Of a stretch of DNA of 41,112 nucleotides, positions 8,685 through 38,343 are shown in pieces. The notes under the pieces are model-generated. The model was not told the origin of the DNA and made no database searches. It was given only the letters and a program-made list of their open reading frames with translations. The position numbers were made by a program, and so were the translations under genes. How positions within the stretch are numbered: the first letter of the stretch is position 1; every line of letters starts with the position of its first letter. This stretch comes from an uncultured archaeon. GTDB taxonomy: Archaea; Iainarchaeota; Iainarchaeia; Iainarchaeales; JAAZKV01. Where the stretch lies: NCBI GenBank assembly GCA_964402905.1, contig CAYODU010000003.1:1-41112 (forward strand), read 5' to 3'.

Positions 8685-10166
8685 ATGCTCCAACACGCAT
8701 ATCTCACAAAGGTTAGTTTCAACCCAGATAAAAAAGAGATTTTGGTGGAGTTTAGTAATAAAGAAACACGGATAGTAAAGCGCTATCCCTTTTTTCCTTT
8801 TTTTGTCCTTCCAAAAGAAATGGGAAAAGAAAAAATAACTGAGTTGTTGCTCGGTTTGGGTTTCAAAAAATTCAGTGTTACTGAGGATGAGAATCTTCAT
8901 ATCTCTGCAGCACACTTTTTTGAATTAAAACAAATGGCTTTTGCTATTGCAAAAGCAACAGATAAAATGCCAGTTGTTGTTGAACCCGAACGTGCATTTT
9001 TAATACAACAAAAATGGACTTATTTTGATTCTTTTTCTTTCGAAAATAATGTTCTAGAAAAAATTTCATCTGAAAAAGAGATTGGTTTTTTCATCACCCC
9101 TGAAATACCATTCAATGAGGCCCTGAGTTTAAATGAAGAAGAAACATTGTTTCTTGTAAAGCAAAGCGCTTTTTCTTCCTTGCTTTTGCTTCCACTAAAC
9201 AAAGTTCCTTCTTCTCCTCAGGAAAAAACAGAAGTTTTTCTTGAAAACATTTTTTTCAAAAAGGGTTTTACTGTTTCTTGGAAAAAAAGTGATTCTCTTT
9301 TTAATCCAAAGCAGTTTGCGCCCACTTGTTCTTTTGATTCTTTTTCAACAATAGATTTTTCTCTTGTGTGGGTACAATTACTTTCAAAAAACTTTTTTAA
9401 TATTGGGCACGATACTCTTAATTGTGATTGTTGTAAACCAATAAAGTTAAATGATAAAAATGTATTGCCTTCTTCACGGATAGAAATTGTTTTTAATGAA
9501 GATTATTTTTTTTATGAATCCTCTTCAGATGCTTTTGCACTTAATTTTCATAAAGAAAATGATTTGAAGGAAAAACGTCTTGAAAAAAAGAAAGAGTTTT
9601 TCATGAAGATGTATCCAGTTGGGCCTTTTTTTAGTGGTCAAAAAGAAAAAGTTCCCCTAAGTGATGCAAAAATGCTTTTGGATACTGGGAAGGTTTCACT
9701 TGAAAAAAATCATTTGTTACAATGGTTTTGTACAAAAAAAGAAAGTTTTCTCTCTGAGGAAATAAGGCAAATAAATACAATGCTTTTTAATTCAAAACAA
9801 ATTATTGAATCTGTTCCAGAGCTTTTTTTATCCACAAAAAAGGTTGGTGCCTATTATACTTTTTTCTTTTCAACAGCCCTGAGTGAAATTGCTTCAGAAA
9901 TACCTTTTCAGTTAACAAATAACTTTTCTCGTTTTTCTTCTTATGGAATCGCTAAAGCGATTTTGTCTATACAAGAAGAAACGCTTTTTCAGTTCAAGAA
10001 GTTTTCTGAGAAAAAAGGTTATAGAATATTGTTCTCTGATAGAAAAAATGTTTTTGTTAAAGGCTTTTCTTCGCTTGCTTTGGCCAAGGGTTTTTCAAAA
10101 GAGCTTTCTCTCCCACAACCAATAATAAAGGGATTTGCAAAGAAAACAAGGGTTCTTGTACAATAA
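8685..10166 (+). CDS. truncated, probably catalytically inactive family-B DNA polymerase homologue
   Basis: 493 aa. The N-terminus (YLTKVSFNPDKKEILVEF..RYPFFPFFVL) resembles the PolB N-terminal domain. FSTIDFSLVWVQLLSKNFFNIGHDTLNCDCCK resembles the motif A region (DFxSLYPSII..HNxSPDTLN..C). RQINTMLFNSKQ resembles a degenerate motif B (KxxxNSxYG). KGYRILFSDRKNVFVKG aligns with motif C, with DTD replaced by SDRKN. I saw no Exo I-III motifs and no thumb-length C-terminus. Confidence 0.6.
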   Translation: MLQHAYLTKVSFNPDKKEILVEFSNKETRIVKRYPFFPFFVLPKEMGKEKITELLLGLGFKKFSVTEDENLHISAAHFFELKQMAFAIAKATDKMPVVVEPERAFLIQQKWTYFDSFSFENNVLEKISSEKEIGFFITPEIPFNEALSLNEEETLFLVKQSAFSSLLLLPLNKVPSSPQEKTEVFLENIFFKKGFTVSWKKSDSLFNPKQFAPTCSFDSFSTIDFSLVWVQLLSKNFFNIGHDTLNCDCCKPIKLNDKNVLPSSRIEIVFNEDYFFYESSSDAFALNFHKENDLKEKRLEKKKEFFMKMYPVGPFFSGQKEKVPLSDAKMLLDTGKVSLEKNHLLQWFCTKKESFLSEEIRQINTMLFNSKQIIESVPELFLSTKKVGAYYTFFFSTALSEIASEIPFQLTNNFSRFSSYGIAKAILSIQEETLFQFKKFSEKKGYRILFSDRKNVFVKGFSSLALAKGFSKELSLPQPIIKGFAKKTRVLVQ

Positions 10167-30007: not shown

Positions 30008-30031
30008 CTTATTCTCACTACTATTATTCCT

Positions 30032-30056
30032 TAGCAGTATTTAAAACTTGTTTTTT
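30032..30056 (-). promoter_or_regulatory. duplicated pilin promoter element, copy A
   Basis: The plus strand reads TAGCAGTATTTAAAACTTGTTTTTT; the minus strand contains TATA-like TTTTAAATA about 35 nt upstream of ATG 30007. It differs from copy B at 1 of 25 positions. Confidence 0.5.
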
Positions 30057-30107
30057 CTTTAGTGCACAAAAATAGTTTTAGAATAGATTTATTTTCTTTA
30101 AATGAAA

Positions 30108-30299
30108 TTAAGGTGTTGTTTTTTGTCCAGTGTATACACTCCAAAGATTTTGCCAAGCATCAGTAACATTGTCTTGAACTTTATCAGTATTTGCGGTGTT
30201 TAGTAGTCCTGTCATGGCGATGATTACGATTACTACTACTAGTATTGCTGCGCCTATGATTAGTAGGTATTCTATTGCTCCTTGTGCTTTTTCTTCCAT
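30108..30299 (-). CDS. short Flp-like type IV pilin, paralogue 2 (63 aa from MEEKAQ)
   Basis: MEEKA/QGAIEYLLIIGAAILVVVIVIIAMTGLLNTA. Its N-terminal 36 codons are nucleotide-identical to those of the 30444..30629 gene. Confidence 0.8.
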   Translation of the reverse strand: MEEKAQGAIEYLLIIGAAILVVVIVIIAMTGLLNTANTDKVQDNVTDAWQNLWSVYTGQKTTP

Positions 30300-30300
30300 T
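30192..30300. repeat. 109-nt perfect direct repeat, copy 1 (5' part of pilin gene)
   Basis: By eye, this stretch is identical to 30522..30630. Confidence 0.85.
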
Positions 30301-30370
30301 GATATCACTCAATTTTTCTAAAAATGTTTTCTTACTTTCTTTTTGTCTTGTTTTTAATATTACTATGTTC

Positions 30371-30395
30371 TAGCAGTATTTAAAACCTGTTTTTT
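30371..30395 (-). promoter_or_regulatory. duplicated pilin promoter element, copy B
   Basis: The plus strand reads TAGCAGTATTTAAAACCTGTTTTTT, upstream of the 30108..30299 pilin gene. Confidence 0.45.
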
Positions 30396-30414
30396 TGTTA
30401 GTAAAAAATAGTTT

Positions 30415-30436
30415 GAAAAGGCATTTCTGCCTTTTC
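30415..30436 (-). terminator. hairpin plus T-tract downstream of pilin gene 30444..30629
   Basis: Perfect 9-bp stem GAAAAGGCA/TGCCTTTTC with a 4-nt loop, starting 8 nt after the stop codon. On the minus strand it is followed by AAACTATTTTTT. Confidence 0.55.
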
Positions 30437-30443
30437 AATAAAA

Positions 30444-30629
30444 TTAAGCTGTTTGTTGCTCGTAAACATCATTAAGTCCAGTTTGTGCATCAGTTACATC
30501 AGTTGTTGCTTGTGTAGTGTCTGCGGTGTTTAGTAGTCCTGTCATGGCGATGATTACGATTACTACTACTAGTATTGCTGCGCCTATGATTAGTAGGTAT
30601 TCTATTGCTCCTTGTGCTTTTTCTTCCAT
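30444..30629 (-). CDS. short Flp-like type IV pilin, paralogue 1 (61 aa), candidate major pilin
   Basis: MEEKA/QGAIEYLLIIGAAILVVVIVIIAMTGLLNTA. A GGAGGG SD lies 6 nt upstream and a terminator hairpin lies downstream. Confidence 0.8.
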   Translation of the reverse strand: MEEKAQGAIEYLLIIGAAILVVVIVIIAMTGLLNTADTTQATTDVTDAQTGLNDVYEQQTA

Positions 30630-30630
30630 T
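30522..30630. repeat. 109-nt perfect direct repeat, copy 2
   Basis: Identical to 30192..30300, offset by 330 nt. Confidence 0.85.
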
Positions 30631-30683
30631 AATATCCCTCCATTTAATTGAGTTATCGTATTTGTATTACTCTCTTTTTATTT

Positions 30684-30836
30684 TTAATTGTTTGCATTTA
30701 CTCCGGCTTTTTCTTCTATTGCTTGGTTTACTGAGTTTGCTGCATTTTTAATTAGTATTGAAGCAACTGTAACTATTACAATTCCTCCAACAACTATAAG
30801 CAAGTACTCTAAATTTACTTGTGCTTTTTCTTCCAT
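30684..30836 (-). CDS. short Flp-like type IV pilin (50 aa), not in the ORF track
   Basis: My translation is MEEKA/QVNLEYLLIVVGGIVIVTVASILIKNAANSVNQAIEEKAGVNANN*. Its ATG shares one base with the TGA of the upstream platform gene (TGATG). Confidence 0.7.
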   Translation of the reverse strand: MEEKAQVNLEYLLIVVGGIVIVTVASILIKNAANSVNQAIEEKAGVNANN

Positions 30837-32856: not shown

Positions 32857-34527
32857 TTATTCACCAAAATTTGTTCTTTGTGCTAAAAAATCTTTTGCTT
32901 TATCACTCACAACACTCAGTTCTCTTATGTTTGATTCAACTAATTGTTCAAGGAATTTTTTTCGTATTTCTAGTTCTGCACTAATTTTTTCTTTTGAAAG
33001 TCCGCTAAAGTCTTGGAGCATTTTAATGTACTCGCTTTGCATTAATGTTTGTTCAATAACATCTCTTACGGGATCTCTTTGGAAAAGAGTTTGTGTTTTT
33101 GGTTTTCCGTCAAGTGCGCCATATACTTCTGCTATTTCGCTTATTCTTCTGATAGTTCCTTTTTTTCTATCATGGTATCGGTGTTCTACAATAATGAAAT
33201 CCAATCCTGCAAGCATTATTTTTGGAACATTCATTGGGGGATTGGTCACACGAATAATTGTTTCTTCTGGAGAATTTGCGTGGACAGTTCCAAGGCAACC
33301 ATCGTGTCCAGTGTTAATTGCGGTGAAAAGTGTAAATGCTTCTTCGTGTCTTATTTCTCCAACTATTATTCTATCGGGACGCATTCTTAAAGAATTTTTT
33401 GTAAGTATATCCATCTTTAGTTCGCCTGTTCCTTCTATTCCTGGCGGTCTTGCTTCCATCCTAATCCAGTGTTTTAATGGAAGATTTAGTTCTGCTGTAT
33501 CTTCAATAGTAATTATTCTTTCTCTGTCCGGAATAAAAGCAGCTAGAACATTTAACAGAGTTGTTTTTCCTGAACCTGTTCCTCCAGAGATAAGCATGTT
33601 AGCAGGTTTTGTTCCCAAGCCATCAATGCACACCCAAAGAAATGCCGCAGCTTCGCTTGACAAAGTGTTCATTCTTATCAAGTCAATTATCGAGTAAGGA
33701 TCTTTTCGGAATTTTCTTATTGTTAGTGTTCCGCCGGAAATTGATGCTGGAGGAATAGTTGCATTTACCCTGCTTCCATCTATAAGTCTTGCATCTAATA
33801 GAGGGGAAGAAACATCTACTCTTCTGCCCACATCTCTTGCAATTTTATTTATCAGGTCTTCTATTTCTTGTTCAGAAAAAAATTCTATATTTGTAGTTAG
33901 CATTTCGTATTCTCTGTGAAAAACATACACTGGTTTTTTCGGGCCAACAATCATTATTTCTTCAAGTAAATCATCTTTTATCAAATCATCAATTAATCCA
34001 TATCCAACCATTTCTCTTACAACGGCATCTGCATAAAAGTTTGTTCTTGATGAAGGAACTTTTAAAGTTGGATTATTTTTTATTATCTCAATTACTTTTT
34101 GTTTGTAAACAATTCTTTTTTCTTCAGCGTTCCTTATTTTGTATGGAACAATGCTGATTAGTCTTGTGGTCGCTTCTTTTAAAGTATTAATAACTTTTCT
34201 TTCGGCGGAGGTTGGGCGTGTTGCTGGAACAAAATAAATTTTCAGCGGATTTCCAGGAATTTCATAAATAGTTGTTTTACCATATGCGGCAACTTCAACT
34301 TTCTTTTTTTCTTCAAACTCTTTTTCAATTTCTGTTTTTTCCTGAGAAGGTTCTATCTCAAGATCCTCTTTTTGTGGGGTAAATGCTTTGTCAAATTCTT
34401 TCATATCTTCTTTTTTAATTGTTTTAGCAATTTCTTCTTCTTTTTGCTCTGGTGCTTTTTCCTCGCCTTTTGAGCCCTCTTTTTCTTTTGCTTCCTTGAG
34501 CAAGTCCCCAAGATAATCAGTTGCCAT
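32857..34527 (-). CDS. type IV pilus assembly ATPase (ArlI/FlaI-TadA-VirB11 family) with Glu/Lys-rich N-terminal extension
   Basis: Walker A SGGTGSGKTTLLN, ITIEDTAEL, RMRPDRIIVGEIRHEEA, GHDGCLGTVHAN. First gene of the pilus cluster. Confidence 0.9.
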   Translation of the reverse strand: MATDYLGDLLKEAKEKEGSKGEEKAPEQKEEEIAKTIKKEDMKEFDKAFTPQKEDLEIEPSQEKTEIEKEFEEKKKVEVAAYGKTTIYEIPGNPLKIYFVPATRPTSAERKVINTLKEATTRLISIVPYKIRNAEEKRIVYKQKVIEIIKNNPTLKVPSSRTNFYADAVVREMVGYGLIDDLIKDDLLEEIMIVGPKKPVYVFHREYEMLTTNIEFFSEQEIEDLINKIARDVGRRVDVSSPLLDARLIDGSRVNATIPPASISGGTLTIRKFRKDPYSIIDLIRMNTLSSEAAAFLWVCIDGLGTKPANMLISGGTGSGKTTLLNVLAAFIPDRERIITIEDTAELNLPLKHWIRMEARPPGIEGTGELKMDILTKNSLRMRPDRIIVGEIRHEEAFTLFTAINTGHDGCLGTVHANSPEETIIRVTNPPMNVPKIMLAGLDFIIVEHRYHDRKKGTIRRISEIAEVYGALDGKPKTQTLFQRDPVRDVIEQTLMQSEYIKMLQDFSGLSKEKISAELEIRKKFLEQLVESNIRELSVVSDKAKDFLAQRTNFGE

Positions 34528-34617: not shown

Positions 34618-36366
34618 TTATTTTTTTTCCTCTACTTCTTTATTTATCTTTACAATAAAATCCTCAACTTTCATTACTGTTTGTTTTCCTTCTCTATCTC
34701 TTACTGCAATATTTTTGTCTTCTTCTTCTTTTGCCCCCACAACAATGACATAAGGGACTTTCATTTTCTGCGCTTCTCTTATTCTGTATCCTAAAGTTTC
34801 GTTTCTTTCATCAAGTTGTGCTCTTACTCCGGCACTAATTAATTCTGCATTTATTTTTTTTCCATATTCAATAAATTTTTCTGAAATTGGAATTGTTATT
34901 GCTTGTTCTGGCGAAAGCCAAACAGGGAATGCTCCACCATACTTTTCAATTAGCATTGCAATTGTTCTTTCGTAACATCCAATAGAACTTCTGTGAATTA
35001 TATATGGTCTTTTCTTTTGTCCGTCTTTATCAGTGTAAGTCATATCAAATCTTTCTGGCAAAGCAAAGTCAATTTGAACAGTAATTATTGTATCTTCTTT
35101 TCCATAAACATTTTTTGCTTGAAGATCAAGTTTTGGTCCGTAAAAAGCGGCTTCGCCTTCTGCTTCTTCATATTTTAATCCAAGATGATCAAGAATTTTT
35201 TTCATTTCTTTTTCAGAGTGCTCCCATGCTTTTGGATTATCAATGTACTTTCCTTTTTTGTTTTCCGGATCCCACTTTGAGAATCTGTAAGTTATTTCAT
35301 CTTTTATTCCCAATGAATTCATTACATAGTCTATCAAACCAATAACATCCTTGAATTCTTTTTCCAATTGTTCTGGAGTAACAATAATGTGTCCTTCAGA
35401 TAAAGTAAATTGTCTTACTCTTGTGAGCCCATGCATTTCTCCTGATGTTTCGTTTCTGAAAAGAACTGATGTTTCTCCAAAGCGTATTGGTAAGTCTTTG
35501 TAAGATTTACCTTCATTTTTGTATATCAAAAATTGGTATGGACATGTCATTGGACGTAGTGCTAAAACTTCTTCATCTTTTTTCTCGTCACCCAGAATAA
35601 ACATTCCTTCTTTGTAGTGTTCCCAATGCCCAGAAATTTTGTACAAATCAGATTTCGCCATGTAAGGAGTTCTAGTATAAATGTAACCTCTTTTTTCTTC
35701 TTCGTCTTCAATAAACCTTGTTAGTATTTGGAATAGTTTTGCTCCTCTTGGCATTAACAAAGGTAATCCCTGGCCAACAAGTTCGTGTGTCATGAATAAT
35801 TTTAGTTCTCTACCGATTTTGTTGTGATCATTTGCCTCTGCTTTTTCTTTTGCAGCTAAAAAATCATCAAGTTCTTTTTGTGTTTTAAAAGAAATTCCAT
35901 AAACTCTTTGTAGTTGCTTATTTTTTTCGTTTCCTTTCCAGTAAGCTGCGCTGATTTTTAATAGTTTAATTGCTTTGATTGGTTCAGTTGATTCTAGGTG
36001 TGGGCCTTTGCACATGTCAGTAAAGGAACCGCTTTTGTAAACACTTATTTTCTTTTCGCCTTCTTTCTCCAAATCTTTTATCATTTCGATTTTGTATAGA
36101 TTATCTTTGAACAATTCGAGTGCTTCTTTTACACTCACTTCACTTTTAACAAGTTTTTCTTTTTTACTTATTATTTTTCTCATTTCAGCTTCAATTTTTT
36201 TTAAATCATTTTCGTTAATATTATTTTTAATTTCAAAATCATAGTGGAAACCCATTTCTATTGGGGGACCTATGGCAATCTTTGCTTTTGGATAAAGTTT
36301 TAGTAGTGCCTCAGCAAAAACATGGGCTGTAGTGTGCCAAAACTTCTCCATTTCTTTTTTATCCAT
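34618..36366 (-). CDS. thrS: threonyl-tRNA synthetase, bacterial-like architecture without the N-terminal TGS domain
   Basis: It starts at the second additional (editing) domain (FWHTTAHVFAEALLKLYP, MCKGPHL). The class II core has RPMTCPYQ, FRNE.SG..HGLTRVRQFT and GGAFP, followed by an anticodon-binding C-terminus. GGTGAT lies 6 nt before the ATG. Confidence 0.9.
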   Translation of the reverse strand: MDKKEMEKFWHTTAHVFAEALLKLYPKAKIAIGPPIEMGFHYDFEIKNNINENDLKKIEAEMRKIISKKEKLVKSEVSVKEALELFKDNLYKIEMIKDLEKEGEKKISVYKSGSFTDMCKGPHLESTEPIKAIKLLKISAAYWKGNEKNKQLQRVYGISFKTQKELDDFLAAKEKAEANDHNKIGRELKLFMTHELVGQGLPLLMPRGAKLFQILTRFIEDEEEKRGYIYTRTPYMAKSDLYKISGHWEHYKEGMFILGDEKKDEEVLALRPMTCPYQFLIYKNEGKSYKDLPIRFGETSVLFRNETSGEMHGLTRVRQFTLSEGHIIVTPEQLEKEFKDVIGLIDYVMNSLGIKDEITYRFSKWDPENKKGKYIDNPKAWEHSEKEMKKILDHLGLKYEEAEGEAAFYGPKLDLQAKNVYGKEDTIITVQIDFALPERFDMTYTDKDGQKKRPYIIHRSSIGCYERTIAMLIEKYGGAFPVWLSPEQAITIPISEKFIEYGKKINAELISAGVRAQLDERNETLGYRIREAQKMKVPYVIVVGAKEEEDKNIAVRDREGKQTVMKVEDFIVKINKEVEEKK

Positions 36367-36427
36367 ACCTTAATCACCAAACATAACAAATTTCTGCTCA
36401 AAAACCTTTTAAAATAAGTCTTGAGCC

Positions 36428-36487
36428 TTAAGCCGTGGTTGTAGTAGTTGTTTCTGAAACAGTTTGAGTCAATTCTACTACTTCCAT
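36428..36487 (-). CDS. candidate Thr-rich leader peptide (uORF) of thrS: MEVVELTQTVSETTTTTTA
   Basis: 19 codons translated by hand, including six consecutive Thr codons (ACA ACT ACT ACA ACC ACG). The stop lies 61 nt upstream of the thrS ATG on the same strand, and a TATA-like box lies about 25 nt upstream of its ATG. Confidence 0.45.
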   Translation of the reverse strand: MEVVELTQTVSETTTTTTA

Positions 36488-36510
36488 AACAATTATTTAT
36501 CTAAATAGTT

Positions 36511-36520
36511 ATTTATAAAC
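36511..36520 (-). promoter_or_regulatory. TATA-like element (minus strand GTTTATAAAT) for the uORF-thrS transcript
   Basis: It is centred about 26-29 nt upstream of the uORF ATG (36487). This spacing fits a leaderless archaeal transcript starting at or near that ATG. Confidence 0.45.
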
Positions 36521-36551
36521 TAGTTAATTTTTGATGTAACAAATTGTATAT

Positions 36552-36992
36552 TTACTTAGTCGCTCGTTTACACTTGTCTTTTCCGCATAAAGAATGGAAC
36601 TCTCTGCAGTAGGTATTGCACCCGTCTTCTTTCATGTACTTACATTCTTTCCATGTGACATTTCCAGAAAAGTTACTTCCGCTTTCGCGAATAACATTTG
36701 CTATTATGTTTCCGTGGCGCGGATCAATTTTTTGTGCGTGGTTAAAATTAGCTCTTCTTGGGCGTTCTTCAATTACTTCGTCAAAACCAATTCTTTCTCC
36801 CCTAATTGGGGTGTTCAAAGAACTTTTTGCAATAGAATTAAGCTCTTCTTTCATCTGACTTATTTGTTCTCGTGGAATTTGTCCGCTACTAGCATCAATA
36901 ATTTTTTCAGGAGAAGCTCTCTGATAAACTGTTTTTTGTTGCATTAATGCATTTGTTTTTTTTGCATCTTCAACAAAACTTTTGAAGGCCAT
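36552..36992 (-). CDS. hypothetical protein with Cys-rich C-terminus (146 aa)
   Basis: Trimmed to ATG 36992 (MAFKSFVEDAKK...). The C-terminus reads WKECKYMKEDGCNTYCREFHSLCGKDKC. The gene is divergent from nreA. Confidence 0.5.
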   Translation of the reverse strand: MAFKSFVEDAKKTNALMQQKTVYQRASPEKIIDASSGQIPREQISQMKEELNSIAKSSLNTPIRGERIGFDEVIEERPRRANFNHAQKIDPRHGNIIANVIRESGSNFSGNVTWKECKYMKEDGCNTYCREFHSLCGKDKCKRATK

Positions 36993-37053
36993 AGCAAGAG
37001 TATTTTTATATCTAAATAAAAAGTTATTGTAAAAAAGCGAAAAAAACGCTTGT

Positions 37054-38343
37054 TTGGATTGCTTTTTGTTCTTTTTGGGACTAATTATTTGCATTGTTTT
37101 TGGTGTTGATTTGATTTCTCCTGAATTATGTATTAAGTGCAAGGGAAAATTGCTTTGCGGTTTAACTAAGTGCCCTATACTTGAAAAGAATTTTTCTCAG
37201 ACAAAAATAGTTTCTTCTATTAAAGACAATAATTTTTTCGGAGCTACTCCGCCAGGTTTTTTTGTTTCTTGGCAAAATTATCCAAAAGTTGCGGTAGCGC
37301 CTCTATCTGCTTTGCCTAATGAAGTATCTGAAATGAGTGATTTGCCTGAAAAGTGGTATGGTTTGCCACAGGAAAAAATAATTTCTTTTAGAGAGTCTTT
37401 GTTGCGTTCATACAAAACAATGCCTGTTTCTCTTGCTTCAAATCCAAATTATGAATTACTTGATTTTCAGGAAATTGCAATGGCATCTTCTTTATTGGAA
37501 GTTGAAGTGAATCTGAAAAAAACTCCTTCAAAGGAAACTACTTTTGATTCTTTTTCTGCACCAATGGGTCCGAGTGCCGAACTCTCAAAAATAAGTTTGA
37601 TTGAGAATCCGAAAATTCCAAAAAAAATTGATTATTATTCTAGCGATATTGATGTTAAATCAAATACTGCTTTGATTGAATTGTTTAAAGATGGTTTTCC
37701 TGTTTCGGTTCTTGCAAAAGTTCTTTCAAGTGGTGCTCTTGGAGTTAAAAAAGATAGAAAAATTGTTCCTACTCGCTGGAGCATTACTGCGGTTGATTCT
37801 AATTTATCAAAGCATTTTATTCAAGAAAGTTTGTCGCAAAACAAATTAATTGATTGTTACAAATTATTCCATTCAAAATATTTGGATAATGATTTTTGGG
37901 TTTTGCTAATGCCTTTTCCATGGAGTTTTGAACAAATAGAAGTTTGGTTACCTGGTGGGATATGGACGGTGGGGGCTACAAGTTACCAGGTTTTATCAGA
38001 CCATGAATTTAATTCCGGTTTAAAGGGTTACCCAAAAGAAACTGAGGGGGCTTATTTTGCTTCTCGCCTTGCAATAACGGAGTATCTAAATGAAAAGAAA
38101 ATTAATGCTGCAGCAATTGTTTTCAGAGAAATCGGACAAGATTATGCAGTGCCTCTCGGAGTGTGGCAGATAAGAGAAAATGTTCGTGCGGCGCTAAAAC
38201 AAGAACCGCTTGATTTTTCTGGTATTGATATTGTTCTTGATTTTTTATCAAAGAAACTTGTTGTGCCAATAGAACAATACAAAAAAAAATCTGAATTAAT
38301 AAAATTCTTCAAAACGCAAACAAGAATAAGTCAGTGGTTCTAA
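37054..38343 (+). CDS. nreA: NreA-like DNA repair protein (archaeal Nre family, DUF650/DUF651)
   Basis: The N-terminal LCIKCKGKLLCGLTKCPIL matches the Nre Cys motif as I recall it, and the size of about 410-430 aa fits. Start is uncertain (TTG 37054 or TTG 37111). Confidence 0.6.
   Translation: MDCFLFFLGLIICIVFGVDLISPELCIKCKGKLLCGLTKCPILEKNFSQTKIVSSIKDNNFFGATPPGFFVSWQNYPKVAVAPLSALPNEVSEMSDLPEKWYGLPQEKIISFRESLLRSYKTMPVSLASNPNYELLDFQEIAMASSLLEVEVNLKKTPSKETTFDSFSAPMGPSAELSKISLIENPKIPKKIDYYSSDIDVKSNTALIELFKDGFPVSVLAKVLSSGALGVKKDRKIVPTRWSITAVDSNLSKHFIQESLSQNKLIDCYKLFHSKYLDNDFWVLLMPFPWSFEQIEVWLPGGIWTVGATSYQVLSDHEFNSGLKGYPKETEGAYFASRLAITEYLNEKKINAAAIVFREIGQDYAVPLGVWQIRENVRAALKQEPLDFSGIDIVLDFLSKKLVVPIEQYKKKSELIKFFKTQTRISQWF

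Follow-up and report, generated by a model that had tools for sequence, protein, structure and literature searches.

A putatively leaderless mini-ORF with a threonine-codon run upstream of thrS in Iainarchaeota: a candidate ribosome-mediated sensor of threonyl-tRNA supply

The present study deals with a stretch of 41,112 nucleotides, hereafter the window (GenBank assembly GCA_964402905.1, contig CAYODU010000003.1, positions 1 to 41,112), from an uncultured archaeon of the Iainarchaeota, and within it with the leader region of thrS, the gene for threonyl-tRNA synthetase (ThrRS). A short open reading frame (ORF) containing six consecutive Thr codons is located just upstream of this gene, and on sequence evidence we propose that the region probably acts on thrS as a ribosome-mediated sensor of threonyl-tRNA supply. 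The two halves of this proposal differ in strength. The sensor half, namely a leaderless ORF whose conserved run of Thr codons, rich in rare ones, stands next to the gene of the cognate synthetase, is well supported, whereas the effector half is not.

The leader ORF (36428-36487; like all leader and thrS features given below, on the minus strand) comprises 19 codons and a stop, from an ATG at 36487 to a TAA at 36430-36428, and translates to MEVVELTQTVSETTTTTTA. Eight of its 19 codons are Thr, and six of these form an uninterrupted run (36434-36451), ACA ACT ACT ACA ACC ACG, in which all four Thr codons are used, the rare ACC and ACG included. A spacer of 61 nt separates the stop from the thrS ATG at 36366. 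The downstream gene (34618-36366) codes for a bacterial-type ThrRS of 582 residues, with the Pfam domains tRNA_SAD, tRNA-synt_2b (class II core) and HGTP_anticodon, but without a TGS domain. With regard to the window as a whole, six successive ACN codons occur a single time in 41 kb, both strands considered, and none of 100 dinucleotide-preserving shuffles contains such a stretch. Thr accounts for 5.0% of the 12,335 codons of the annotated-size ORFs, and ACC and ACG represent only 11% and 4%, respectively, of the Thr codons of the window genes. Thr runs of at least four residues were found neither in any window gene nor in the other 325 small ORFs (8-40 residues); the homopolymeric runs present in the window are made of K, L, I, F and V, and in small ORFs also of S and R. 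The first-pass annotation, which had drawn attention to this Thr-rich mini-ORF and had named the downstream gene thrS, was exact in all its statements on the sequence and right as to the gene.

The sequence upstream of thrS was compared among about 21 distinct Iainarchaeota lineages possessing a TGS-less thrS. Ten of them, the window included, carry at the homologous place an ORF of 17-23 codons with a Thr run at its end. The other nine leader peptides are MDVVTSSQTVSVTTTTTA (lineage L126), MDVVKSLTNSNLTTTTA (L006), MEIVIEFMPITSTSTTTTQ (L003), MEKASNNLILLKMTTLATTTL (L004), MQKANKFITTTTTTTLTA (L083), MQKAVKFTTTTTTTTVTA (L134), MVEEITQNTYSITETTTTR (L164), MSKIVTSQESTSESLTSTTTA (L170) and, as a weak case, MKINKLIKNNFKITTPISTQTQQ (L005). 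Thr occupies 65 of the 193 codons of these ten leaders (34%), compared with 4.9% in the adjacent thrS genes. Furthermore, ACG and ACC together make up 43% of the Thr codons of the leaders and 8% of those of their thrS, an approximately five-fold enrichment in rare codons (Fisher p = 5e-11, uncorrected for relatedness). From one leader to another, the run differs in length by whole codons and varies at third positions, the remaining residues drift, and the N-terminal parts are unrelated. Whole-codon changes of the run, third-position variation and drift elsewhere are the signature of a leader peptide and not of a functional micro-protein. The idea that relatives would keep a Thr-rich ORF upstream of thrS while its other codons drift, put forward in the first-pass annotation, therefore holds for ten lineages and fails in about half of the relatives, which have no run.

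A short ORF without a Thr run stands at this place in six further lineages (L028, L095, L129, L140, L161 and L162), where a single Thr is found one or two codons before the stop (MDFVTIL, MDFVTSL, MKVFVTSQ, ...RRDLATIL, ...SDLATK). Of note, this single Thr codon falls in a conserved G(T/C)CACTA string near the stop, and may represent a minimal sensor, an arrest peptide or an RNA motif. The ProRS gene of L162 is leaderless and has no Pro-run ORF before it, and the window contains no second synthetase gene. A 14-mer scan of viral contigs for further loci returned unspecific matches only.

The window genes that start transcription units lack a Shine-Dalgarno (SD) sequence and are preceded by a TTTAWA-type TATA box ending 21-23 nt before their ATG, so that their mRNAs are expected to be leaderless, and its operon-internal genes have a GGTGA-type SD upstream. 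The mini-ORF, which has no SD, fits the pattern of first cistrons, and thrS that of internal ones. The TATA box upstream of the mini-ORF, TTTATAAA (P1; 36512-36519), lies inside GTTTATAAAT (36511-36520) and ends 24 nt before the ATG; an identical GTTTATAAAT precedes the SD-less gene at 8685-10166, at 23 nt. The SD of thrS, GGTGAT (36373-36378), is located 6 nt before its ATG and is of the GGTGA type of internal cistrons. In 15 of the 16 mini-ORF loci, the distance from the end of a TATA-like 8-mer to the ATG of the mini-ORF amounts to 20-28 nt (about 32 nt in L005). We infer that P1 is an archaeal TATA promoter whose leaderless mRNA starts with the ATG at 36487 or next to it, and that the leader ORF is probably translated from this mRNA. 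The reading of the region as a TATA-driven leaderless mini-ORF followed by an SD-led thrS had already been proposed, and it agrees with the build of the other window genes.

An imperfect palindrome, TATACAATTTGTTACAT (36534-36550), is present 2 nt after the stop of the Cys-rich gene located upstream and about 10-15 nt upstream of the P1 TATA box. Its consensus, T(A/G)TACA-N4-5-(G/A)TTACA(T/C), is conserved in 16 loci and unique in the window. Between the palindrome and the ATG of the mini-ORF, the distance varies by no more than 1-2 nt in 15 of the 16 mini-ORF loci, the palindrome of L005 being about 9 nt further upstream. It is likely that this palindrome is a transcription-factor site for P1, and the fixed spacing of palindrome and TATA box relative to the ATG is what a leaderless start would demand.

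Two hairpins are predicted in the leader RNA. In hairpin A (36436-36486), UGG..GUAGUAG (36484-36486 and 36475-36481) pairs with the Thr run, CUACUAC..CCA (36441-36447 and 36436-36438); this hairpin is present in both the minimum-energy and the centroid folds of the window leader, and its 5' strand includes part of the start codon. In nine of the ten Thr-run loci, differing sequences are predicted to form an equivalent pairing, such as GUAGUAG/CUACUAC in the window, GGAUGUAGUAA/UUACUACGACC in L006, UGGUGG/CCACCA in L164, GCGGUU/GACCGU in L134 and AGCAAG/CUUGCU in L004, the latter via Leu-Ala codons that interrupt the run. When arms were swapped between loci, cognate arms gave a mean of -9.3 kcal/mol versus -6.6 kcal/mol for non-cognate ones, and none of 5000 permutations was as good.

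Hairpin B (36396-36426) consists of 11 bp and begins 1 nt after the stop, with GCUCAAGACUU as its 5' arm and AGG-U-UUUUGAGC as its 3' arm; it contains the inverted repeat formed by GCTCAAGA (36426-36419) and the complementary TTTTGAGC (36403-36396). Its 3' arm harbours a U5 tract in the window (36400-36404) and U4-6 across lineages. The outer stems change from lineage to lineage with complementarity preserved (GCUC/GAGC, CUCCUC/GAGGAG, CCUG/CAGG, ACAC/GUGU, GCU.GGA/UCC.AGC), and the arm-swap test gave means of -10.8 kcal/mol for cognate versus -7.3 kcal/mol for non-cognate arms, a result that no permutation out of 50,000 equalled. When the window hairpin alone was used to build a covariance model, the orthologous site was found in eight other lineages. 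In the resulting alignment, 85% of the cells are paired and six of the 11 pairs are changed on both sides; the covariation score is 0.376, compared with 0.177 after shuffling (0 of 500 as good) and at most 0.10 with partners slid, figures that are to be read with the caveat that the alignment is fitted to the structure. A second U-tract (U5-U8), following (A)AGGA, occurs 4-5 nt after the stem in six of the 11 hairpin-B lineages, i.e., the ten Thr-run lineages and L081; the U-run after the hairpin is weak in the window, L004, L134 and L164. MAFFT with RNAalifold misaligned the arms in the hairpin region and so yielded no consensus structure; the swap tests and the covariance-model alignment were used instead. 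Since both A and B covary, at least the RNA from the ATG through the 3' arm of B is under selection. Both elements had been noticed in the first-pass annotation, as a complementarity between GTAGTAG (36481-36475) and CTACTAC (36447-36441) and as a possible hairpin after the stop: the former pairs in the minimum-energy fold of the window, and compensatory changes in relatives are now found for both.

The position of hairpin B relative to the ORF is nearly invariant. In nine of the ten Thr-run loci, the last Thr is followed by a single sense codon before the stop, and 0-2 nt separate the stop from the stem in eight of the nine loci with B in the minimum-energy fold (6 nt in L164). The footprint of a ribosome reaches about 12 nt past the first base of the A-site codon. 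On these dimensions, a ribosome inside the Thr run would leave B intact, one at the last Thr would touch only the GC clamp at the base of B, and one placed one or two codons further would cover the 5' arm. In addition, B accompanies the run: the pairing energy of its arms is about -7 to -14 kcal/mol in all ten Thr-run loci and about -1 to -6.3 kcal/mol in ten run-less loci, with the exception of the L002/L081/L163 lineage, which has B without the run. Its co-occurrence with the run, together with a spacing from the stop that is exact to the nucleotide, makes B the obvious candidate for the effector.

The loop of hairpin B contains a second TATA-like box, TTTTAAAA (P2; 36407-36414), 40 nt before the thrS ATG. 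It is part of the motif TTTAAAAGG(T/C)TTTT, which is more conserved than any other part of the intergenic region. The motif looks like the TATA boxes of the lineage and is kept in lineages with neither hairpin nor mini-ORF. In L037 and L127, this motif lies 27-30 nt before an SD-less thrS ATG, i.e., at the position of a leaderless promoter. P2 is therefore probably the own core promoter of thrS, and its retention without hairpin or ORF, at a leaderless distance, suggests that it is the ancestral one, around which the arms of B evolved. In the window, a transcript from P2 would have a 5' untranslated region of about 16 nt containing the SD.

From these elements, the following mechanism can be proposed. 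P1, preceded by the conserved palindrome, would initiate a leaderless mRNA with the ATG at 36487 or next to it, and a ribosome would load on the 5' AUG during RNA synthesis; archaea do couple transcription with translation (French et al. 2007, cited in PMC7858274). As soon as the RNA of the Thr run has been made, hairpin A would close over the start region, and it may in this way limit translation to a single co-transcriptional ribosome per transcript, in which case the progress of that ribosome would be the signal. The loaded ribosome would have to read a Thr run rich in rare ACG and ACC codons. If it is held in the run, B would be free to form; if it has moved past the run, the 5' arm of B would be melted. 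Hairpin B, with a U-tract in its 3' arm and usually a second U-tract after it, would then set the fraction of P1 transcripts that reach the SD-led thrS, and P2, in its loop, would probably give a basal, leader-independent supply of thrS.

With regard to the sign of the response, we favour with modest confidence the homeostatic one, in which stalling would lead to more thrS, over the opposite; the first-pass annotation had supposed the same direction. Archaeal termination depends on U-tracts recognised by aCPSF1 (PMC8716108), and one route to a homeostatic response would be that B, when formed, hides its U-tract from the aCPSF1/FttA termination machinery; B might also promote read-through or stability in some other way. 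In its complete form, the proposal is that of a single hairpin in place of the three-hairpin switch of bacteria, flush with the leader stop and built around the TATA box of the gene, which a leaderless pioneer ribosome would open or leave closed; the hairpin would govern the exposure of a U-tract to aCPSF1/FttA, and hence how much transcription from the upstream promoter is added to thrS. Such a device, which would be the first archaeal amino-acid-sensing leader peptide, is put forward tentatively, as a possibility that falls short of being probable.

Several points weigh against this sensor, beginning with its distribution. The run is frequent, not universal, as ten lineages have it and 11 of the about 21 do not, six of the latter with P1 and a short ORF and five without an ORF. 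It is missing even in close relatives as judged by ThrRS identity, such as L161 (75%) and L162 (77%). The case of L005 is weak, with its ORF off the leaderless position, no hairpin A, and B outside the minimum-energy fold. Moreover, the lineages are phylogenetically related, so that the counts and p-values given here overstate their independence. In L002, L081 and L163, B is kept with compensatory changes and the P1-ORF region is replaced by A-rich sequence; the survival of B after the loss of ORF and P1 suggests that some of its function is independent of the ORF.

A second set of points concerns RNA structure. The folding energy of the whole leader, -21.2 kcal/mol, is that of shuffled sequences (z = 0.05), so that the evidence for structure comes from covariation and not from stability. 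With the strands of A numbered 1 and 2 and those of B 3 and 4, swap tests among these segments, the SD region and the 5' end of thrS show a cognate advantage limited to 1:2 and 3:4. The 2:3, 2:4, 1:3 and 1:4 pairings have none (for 2:3, -3.6 kcal/mol cognate versus -3.4 kcal/mol non-cognate, 1897 of 5000 permutations being as good), and a classical antiterminator is thus lacking. The 2:4 pairing, of moderate energy in several loci, was dropped, having neither covariation nor a sensible role. The SD region and the 5' end of thrS were no different, as their pairing with leader segments showed neither a cognate advantage nor covariation. With a ribosome masking the first or the last Thr codon or the stop codon, SD accessibility underwent no consistent shift, and the SD-to-AUG region, with a predicted unpaired probability of 0.33-0.79, is about half accessible in all ribosome states. 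The mutually exclusive folds for which the first-pass annotation had suggested searching the leader RNA were consequently not found, be it as an antiterminator or as a sequestered SD.

Other points bear directly on the effector. In the simplest steric model, the geometry of the stop and B would give less thrS on stalling, and hairpins are generally not needed for termination in archaea (PMC8716108). Within the window, terminator-like hairpins are not enriched over shuffles. Lastly, the TATA-like box in the loop of B implies that thrS may be transcribed mainly from P2, beyond the reach of the leader, which may then control the P1 contribution only.

The steric model leads to a first alternative, a coupling of the type known from pyrBI but opposite in sign to the one proposed, in which B and its U-tract form a terminator blocked solely by a ribosome that has passed the run and stands on the stop codon. 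Efficient decoding of Thr would then permit read-through from P1 into thrS, and stalling or absence of translation would result in termination. No other mechanism manages with nothing beyond what is seen: the stop codon abuts the 5' arm of B, the second U-tract follows B in six of the 11 lineages, no antiterminator exists, and hairpin A could restrict translation to one co-transcriptional ribosome. However, the feedback would be positive, with less charged tRNA-Thr giving less ThrRS, which is physiologically odd; to our knowledge, every known control of a synthetase (T-box, pheST attenuation, GCN4/ATF4) runs in the opposite direction. The U-run following the hairpin is also weak in the four loci named above, among them the window, and archaeal termination generally proceeds without hairpins (PMC8716108). 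We regard this coupling as unlikely, while placing it ahead of the other alternatives.

A second alternative is that there is no regulatory link at all. P1, the mini-ORF and B would constitute a separate tiny unit, for a micro-protein or a small RNA, insulated by its 3' hairpin and U-tract; thrS would be transcribed from P2, and the adjacency of the two would reflect conserved gene order. This would account for the retention of the TTTAAAAGG motif without mini-ORF or hairpin, there at a leaderless distance from thrS, for the gene order Nre / Cys-rich gene / thrS / T2SSE conserved throughout, for the fact that hairpin B outlives the loss of the ORF in L081, and for P1 and a short ORF without a Thr run in six lineages. 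It fails, however, to explain why a homopolymeric codon run matches the amino acid of the adjacent synthetase and is built of rare codons, or why this run is the sole conserved part of the peptide and co-occurs with hairpin B. The fixed spacing of last Thr, stop and stem is left unexplained too, as is the internal-type SD of thrS in a genome with leaderless first cistrons. An absence of any link is, in our view, quite unlikely.

A third alternative keeps the sensor and moves the effector to a post-transcriptional level. A stalled 5' ribosome would protect the P1-thrS mRNA from 5'-to-3' decay, as in the ermC type of control, or B or the terminating ribosome would modulate thrS translation, in the manner of the mycobacterial Cys small ORFs. 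The leaderless architecture of the small ORF resembles that of the mycobacterial poly-Cys attenuators (10.1101/834739), no antiterminator would be required, and in several loci the U-run is predicted to pair weakly with the SD. Nevertheless, the predicted accessibility of the SD, 0.4-0.7 in every ribosome state, does not shift consistently, and no leader segment covaries with the SD region; mRNA stabilisation, for its part, leaves hairpin B and its spacing unexplained. We consider an effector of this kind improbable. That the element is a non-coding RNA of two hairpins, whose open frame and 'Thr codons' are by-products of stem sequence, is very improbable: the two covarying hairpins do make up most of it and part of the run is one strand of A, but 15 of 16 loci have an open frame whose ATG occupies the leaderless position (L005 being offset), run indels are whole codons with variation on third positions, the runs of seven to eight Thr codons in L083 and L134 lie largely outside the paired segment, the stop is fixed relative to B, and no Rfam family matches.

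Some further readings of the leader were set aside. Frameshifting at hungry codons past the stop was rejected, as the +1 and -1 frames end at inconsistent places. A mimic of the tRNA anticodon in the loop of B was likewise rejected, the triplet being GGU in the window and GGC in L003 and L081. No T-box was detected at the gathering threshold in the window, at E up to 1 in eight related loci or at E up to 10 in 36300-36620, and the sole Rfam match near the leader is a chance-level carA; bacterial relatives present in the same search set (L102, L118 and L152) do carry the GGTGGAACCGCG T-box motif. As a remnant of a lost TGS domain or of a bacterial T-box leader, the region shows no similarity, and it has the features of an archaeal promoter.

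With regard to the host, the window has a GC content of 32% and an archaeal gene content (Nre, RFC small subunit, ABCE1, an eRF1-family protein, a CCA-adding enzyme and HerA/NurA/Rad50), and the nearest ThrRS genes belong to metagenome-assembled genomes labelled Candidatus Iainarchaeum or Diapherotrites, which are DPANN archaea. The window ThrRS shares 70-78% identity with ThrRS of Iainarchaeota/Diapherotrites and about 60% with that of Clostridium. Its tRNA_SAD editing domain, its likeness to the Clostridium enzyme and the missing TGS domain suggest an old transfer of thrS between Firmicutes and Iainarchaeota. In the public annotation, the protein begins five codons further downstream (577 residues); the spacing of the SD favours the ATG at 36366.

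ThrRS in these archaea is also a mosaic. The pairs L083/L134, L161/L140 and window/L126 are 85-98% identical over residues 1-180 and have near-identical leaders; their catalytic cores share merely 33-48% identity. As the N-terminal tree and the core tree disagree, two deeply divergent types of ThrRS core appear to have been exchanged through recombination among these archaea. A whole-protein ThrRS tree, considered for placing the leaders, was rejected as misleading because of this mosaic structure.

The gene order around the leader, Nre / small Cys-rich gene / thrS / T2SSE ATPase, is conserved in nearly all lineages. The Cys-rich ORF of the window (36552-37142, minus strand), always located between Nre and the thrS leader, gave no Pfam match; its conserved C-terminus reads ..W.EC.Y.K..G...C.E.H.LCGK.KC.RA... 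Downstream of thrS, the T2SSE-family ATPase of L162 (L162:3375-4746) reaches 995 residues and contains an intein bearing a LAGLIDADG endonuclease domain, which the window homologue (32857-34527) does not possess. The strongest terminator-like site of the window is found elsewhere, at 30413-30438 (minus strand), where an 11-bp perfect hairpin, TTGAAAAGGCAGAAATGCCTTTTCAA, is followed by a T-run in the intergenic region 30008-30835.

In several relatives, a structured insert of about 65-110 nt occupies the 3' end of the Cys-rich gene that precedes thrS. It consists of a hairpin, the sequence (A/T)TGA(G/A)TCAATCG, and a second hairpin ending in CGAAAC..GG(G/A)CC, and it is flanked by a direct duplication of 25-38 nt of the end of the Cys-rich gene. 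The insert was located at L081:1150-1300 (the same in L002 and L163), L003:~2700-2800, L127:1250-1350 and L170:1180-1320, and in L126 at ~560-680 and 2579-2640. The second copy of L126 lies after the thrS stop and is followed by a diverged duplicate of the C-terminal coding end of thrS. The insert matched no Rfam family at E up to 1 and is absent from the window; it resembles a small mobile element or a recombination junction that carries or duplicates gene 3' ends.

What would be new in the thrS leader is its host. In bacteria, leader-peptide control of synthetase genes is already known for pheST and for leuS and trpS2 of Streptomyces (PMC1262725). The first-pass annotation had supposed that no such control has been described in archaea, and in the limited full-text literature available to us no archaeal leader-peptide precedent was found, an absence that is not proof. 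The closest statements come from ribosome profiling of Haloferax and Methanosarcina, where some 5' small ORFs are merely called 'reminiscent' of bacterial leader peptides (PMC10117724, PMC11456600). In that literature, no amino-acid-sensing device exploiting archaeal transcription-translation coupling was found either, though the coupling itself is known. If the proposal is true, attenuation by the ribosome is not confined to bacteria, can operate from a leaderless mRNA, and can work with a polymerase that terminates via U-tracts and aCPSF1/FttA and not via hairpins. The leader further provides a defined element of about 125 nt that varies in nature (runs of three to eight Thr, run-less and ORF-less versions). 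It also affords a view, seldom available, of how genes are regulated in DPANN archaea, organisms that rely on others for their amino acids.

Classical bacterial attenuators of the leader-peptide type are represented by thrL, trpL, hisL and leuL of E. coli and by the pheM leader of pheST. The thrS leader resembles them in its short upstream ORF, on the same strand, with a run of cognate codons that alone is conserved, and in its two successive hairpins (1:2 and 3:4), the second of which is U-rich and adjoins the regulated gene. The use of rare codons has its counterpart in the leu leader, and a synthetase as target is shared with the pheST, leuS and trpS2 attenuators. In contrast, the host is an archaeon, the ORF is probably leaderless, the regulatory codons are located in segment 2 and not in segment 1, there is no 2:3 antiterminator, the stop abuts the second hairpin, and the loop of that hairpin contains a TATA box; archaeal RNA polymerase, moreover, terminates without need of hairpins (PMC8716108).

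The mycobacterial attenuators formed by leaderless poly-Cys small ORFs (Canestrari et al., 10.1101/834739) would share with the thrS leader a leaderless short first cistron, and they are similar in having a run of the sensed residue near the end of the short ORF, an SD-led downstream cistron and a proposed stalling signal. They differ in the amino acid, in the domain of life and in the class of target, which is a synthetase here. In mycobacteria, the stalled ribosome blocks a duplex that sequesters the ribosome-binding site, whereas such a duplex is neither predicted nor covarying at the thrS leader. Lacking both this duplex and an antiterminator, the thrS leader is filed neither with the classical attenuators nor with the mycobacterial ones.

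In the pyrBI and pyrE systems of enterobacteria, read-through is set sterically, with no antiterminator, by where the leading ribosome stands with respect to a terminator hairpin. These systems sense UTP via polymerase pausing, and their ORF extends through the terminator, whereas the thrS leader would respond to the speed of the ribosome on Thr codons and its ORF stops before the hairpin. E. coli thrS itself is controlled by a translational operator that mimics the tRNA-Thr anticodon arm and is bound by ThrRS. A hairpin just upstream of the ribosome-binding site of thrS is common to both; the loop motif of the archaeal hairpin, TTTAAAAGG(T/C), differs in having no conserved Thr anticodon and in being kept in hairpin-less lineages. 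Finally, the T-box that controls thrS in Firmicutes, the lineage to which this ThrRS is closest, has the same regulated gene and the same signal, the charging of tRNA-Thr. The thrS leader described here has neither the sequence nor the structure of a T-box, and sensing would be achieved by the ribosome and not by direct binding of the tRNA.

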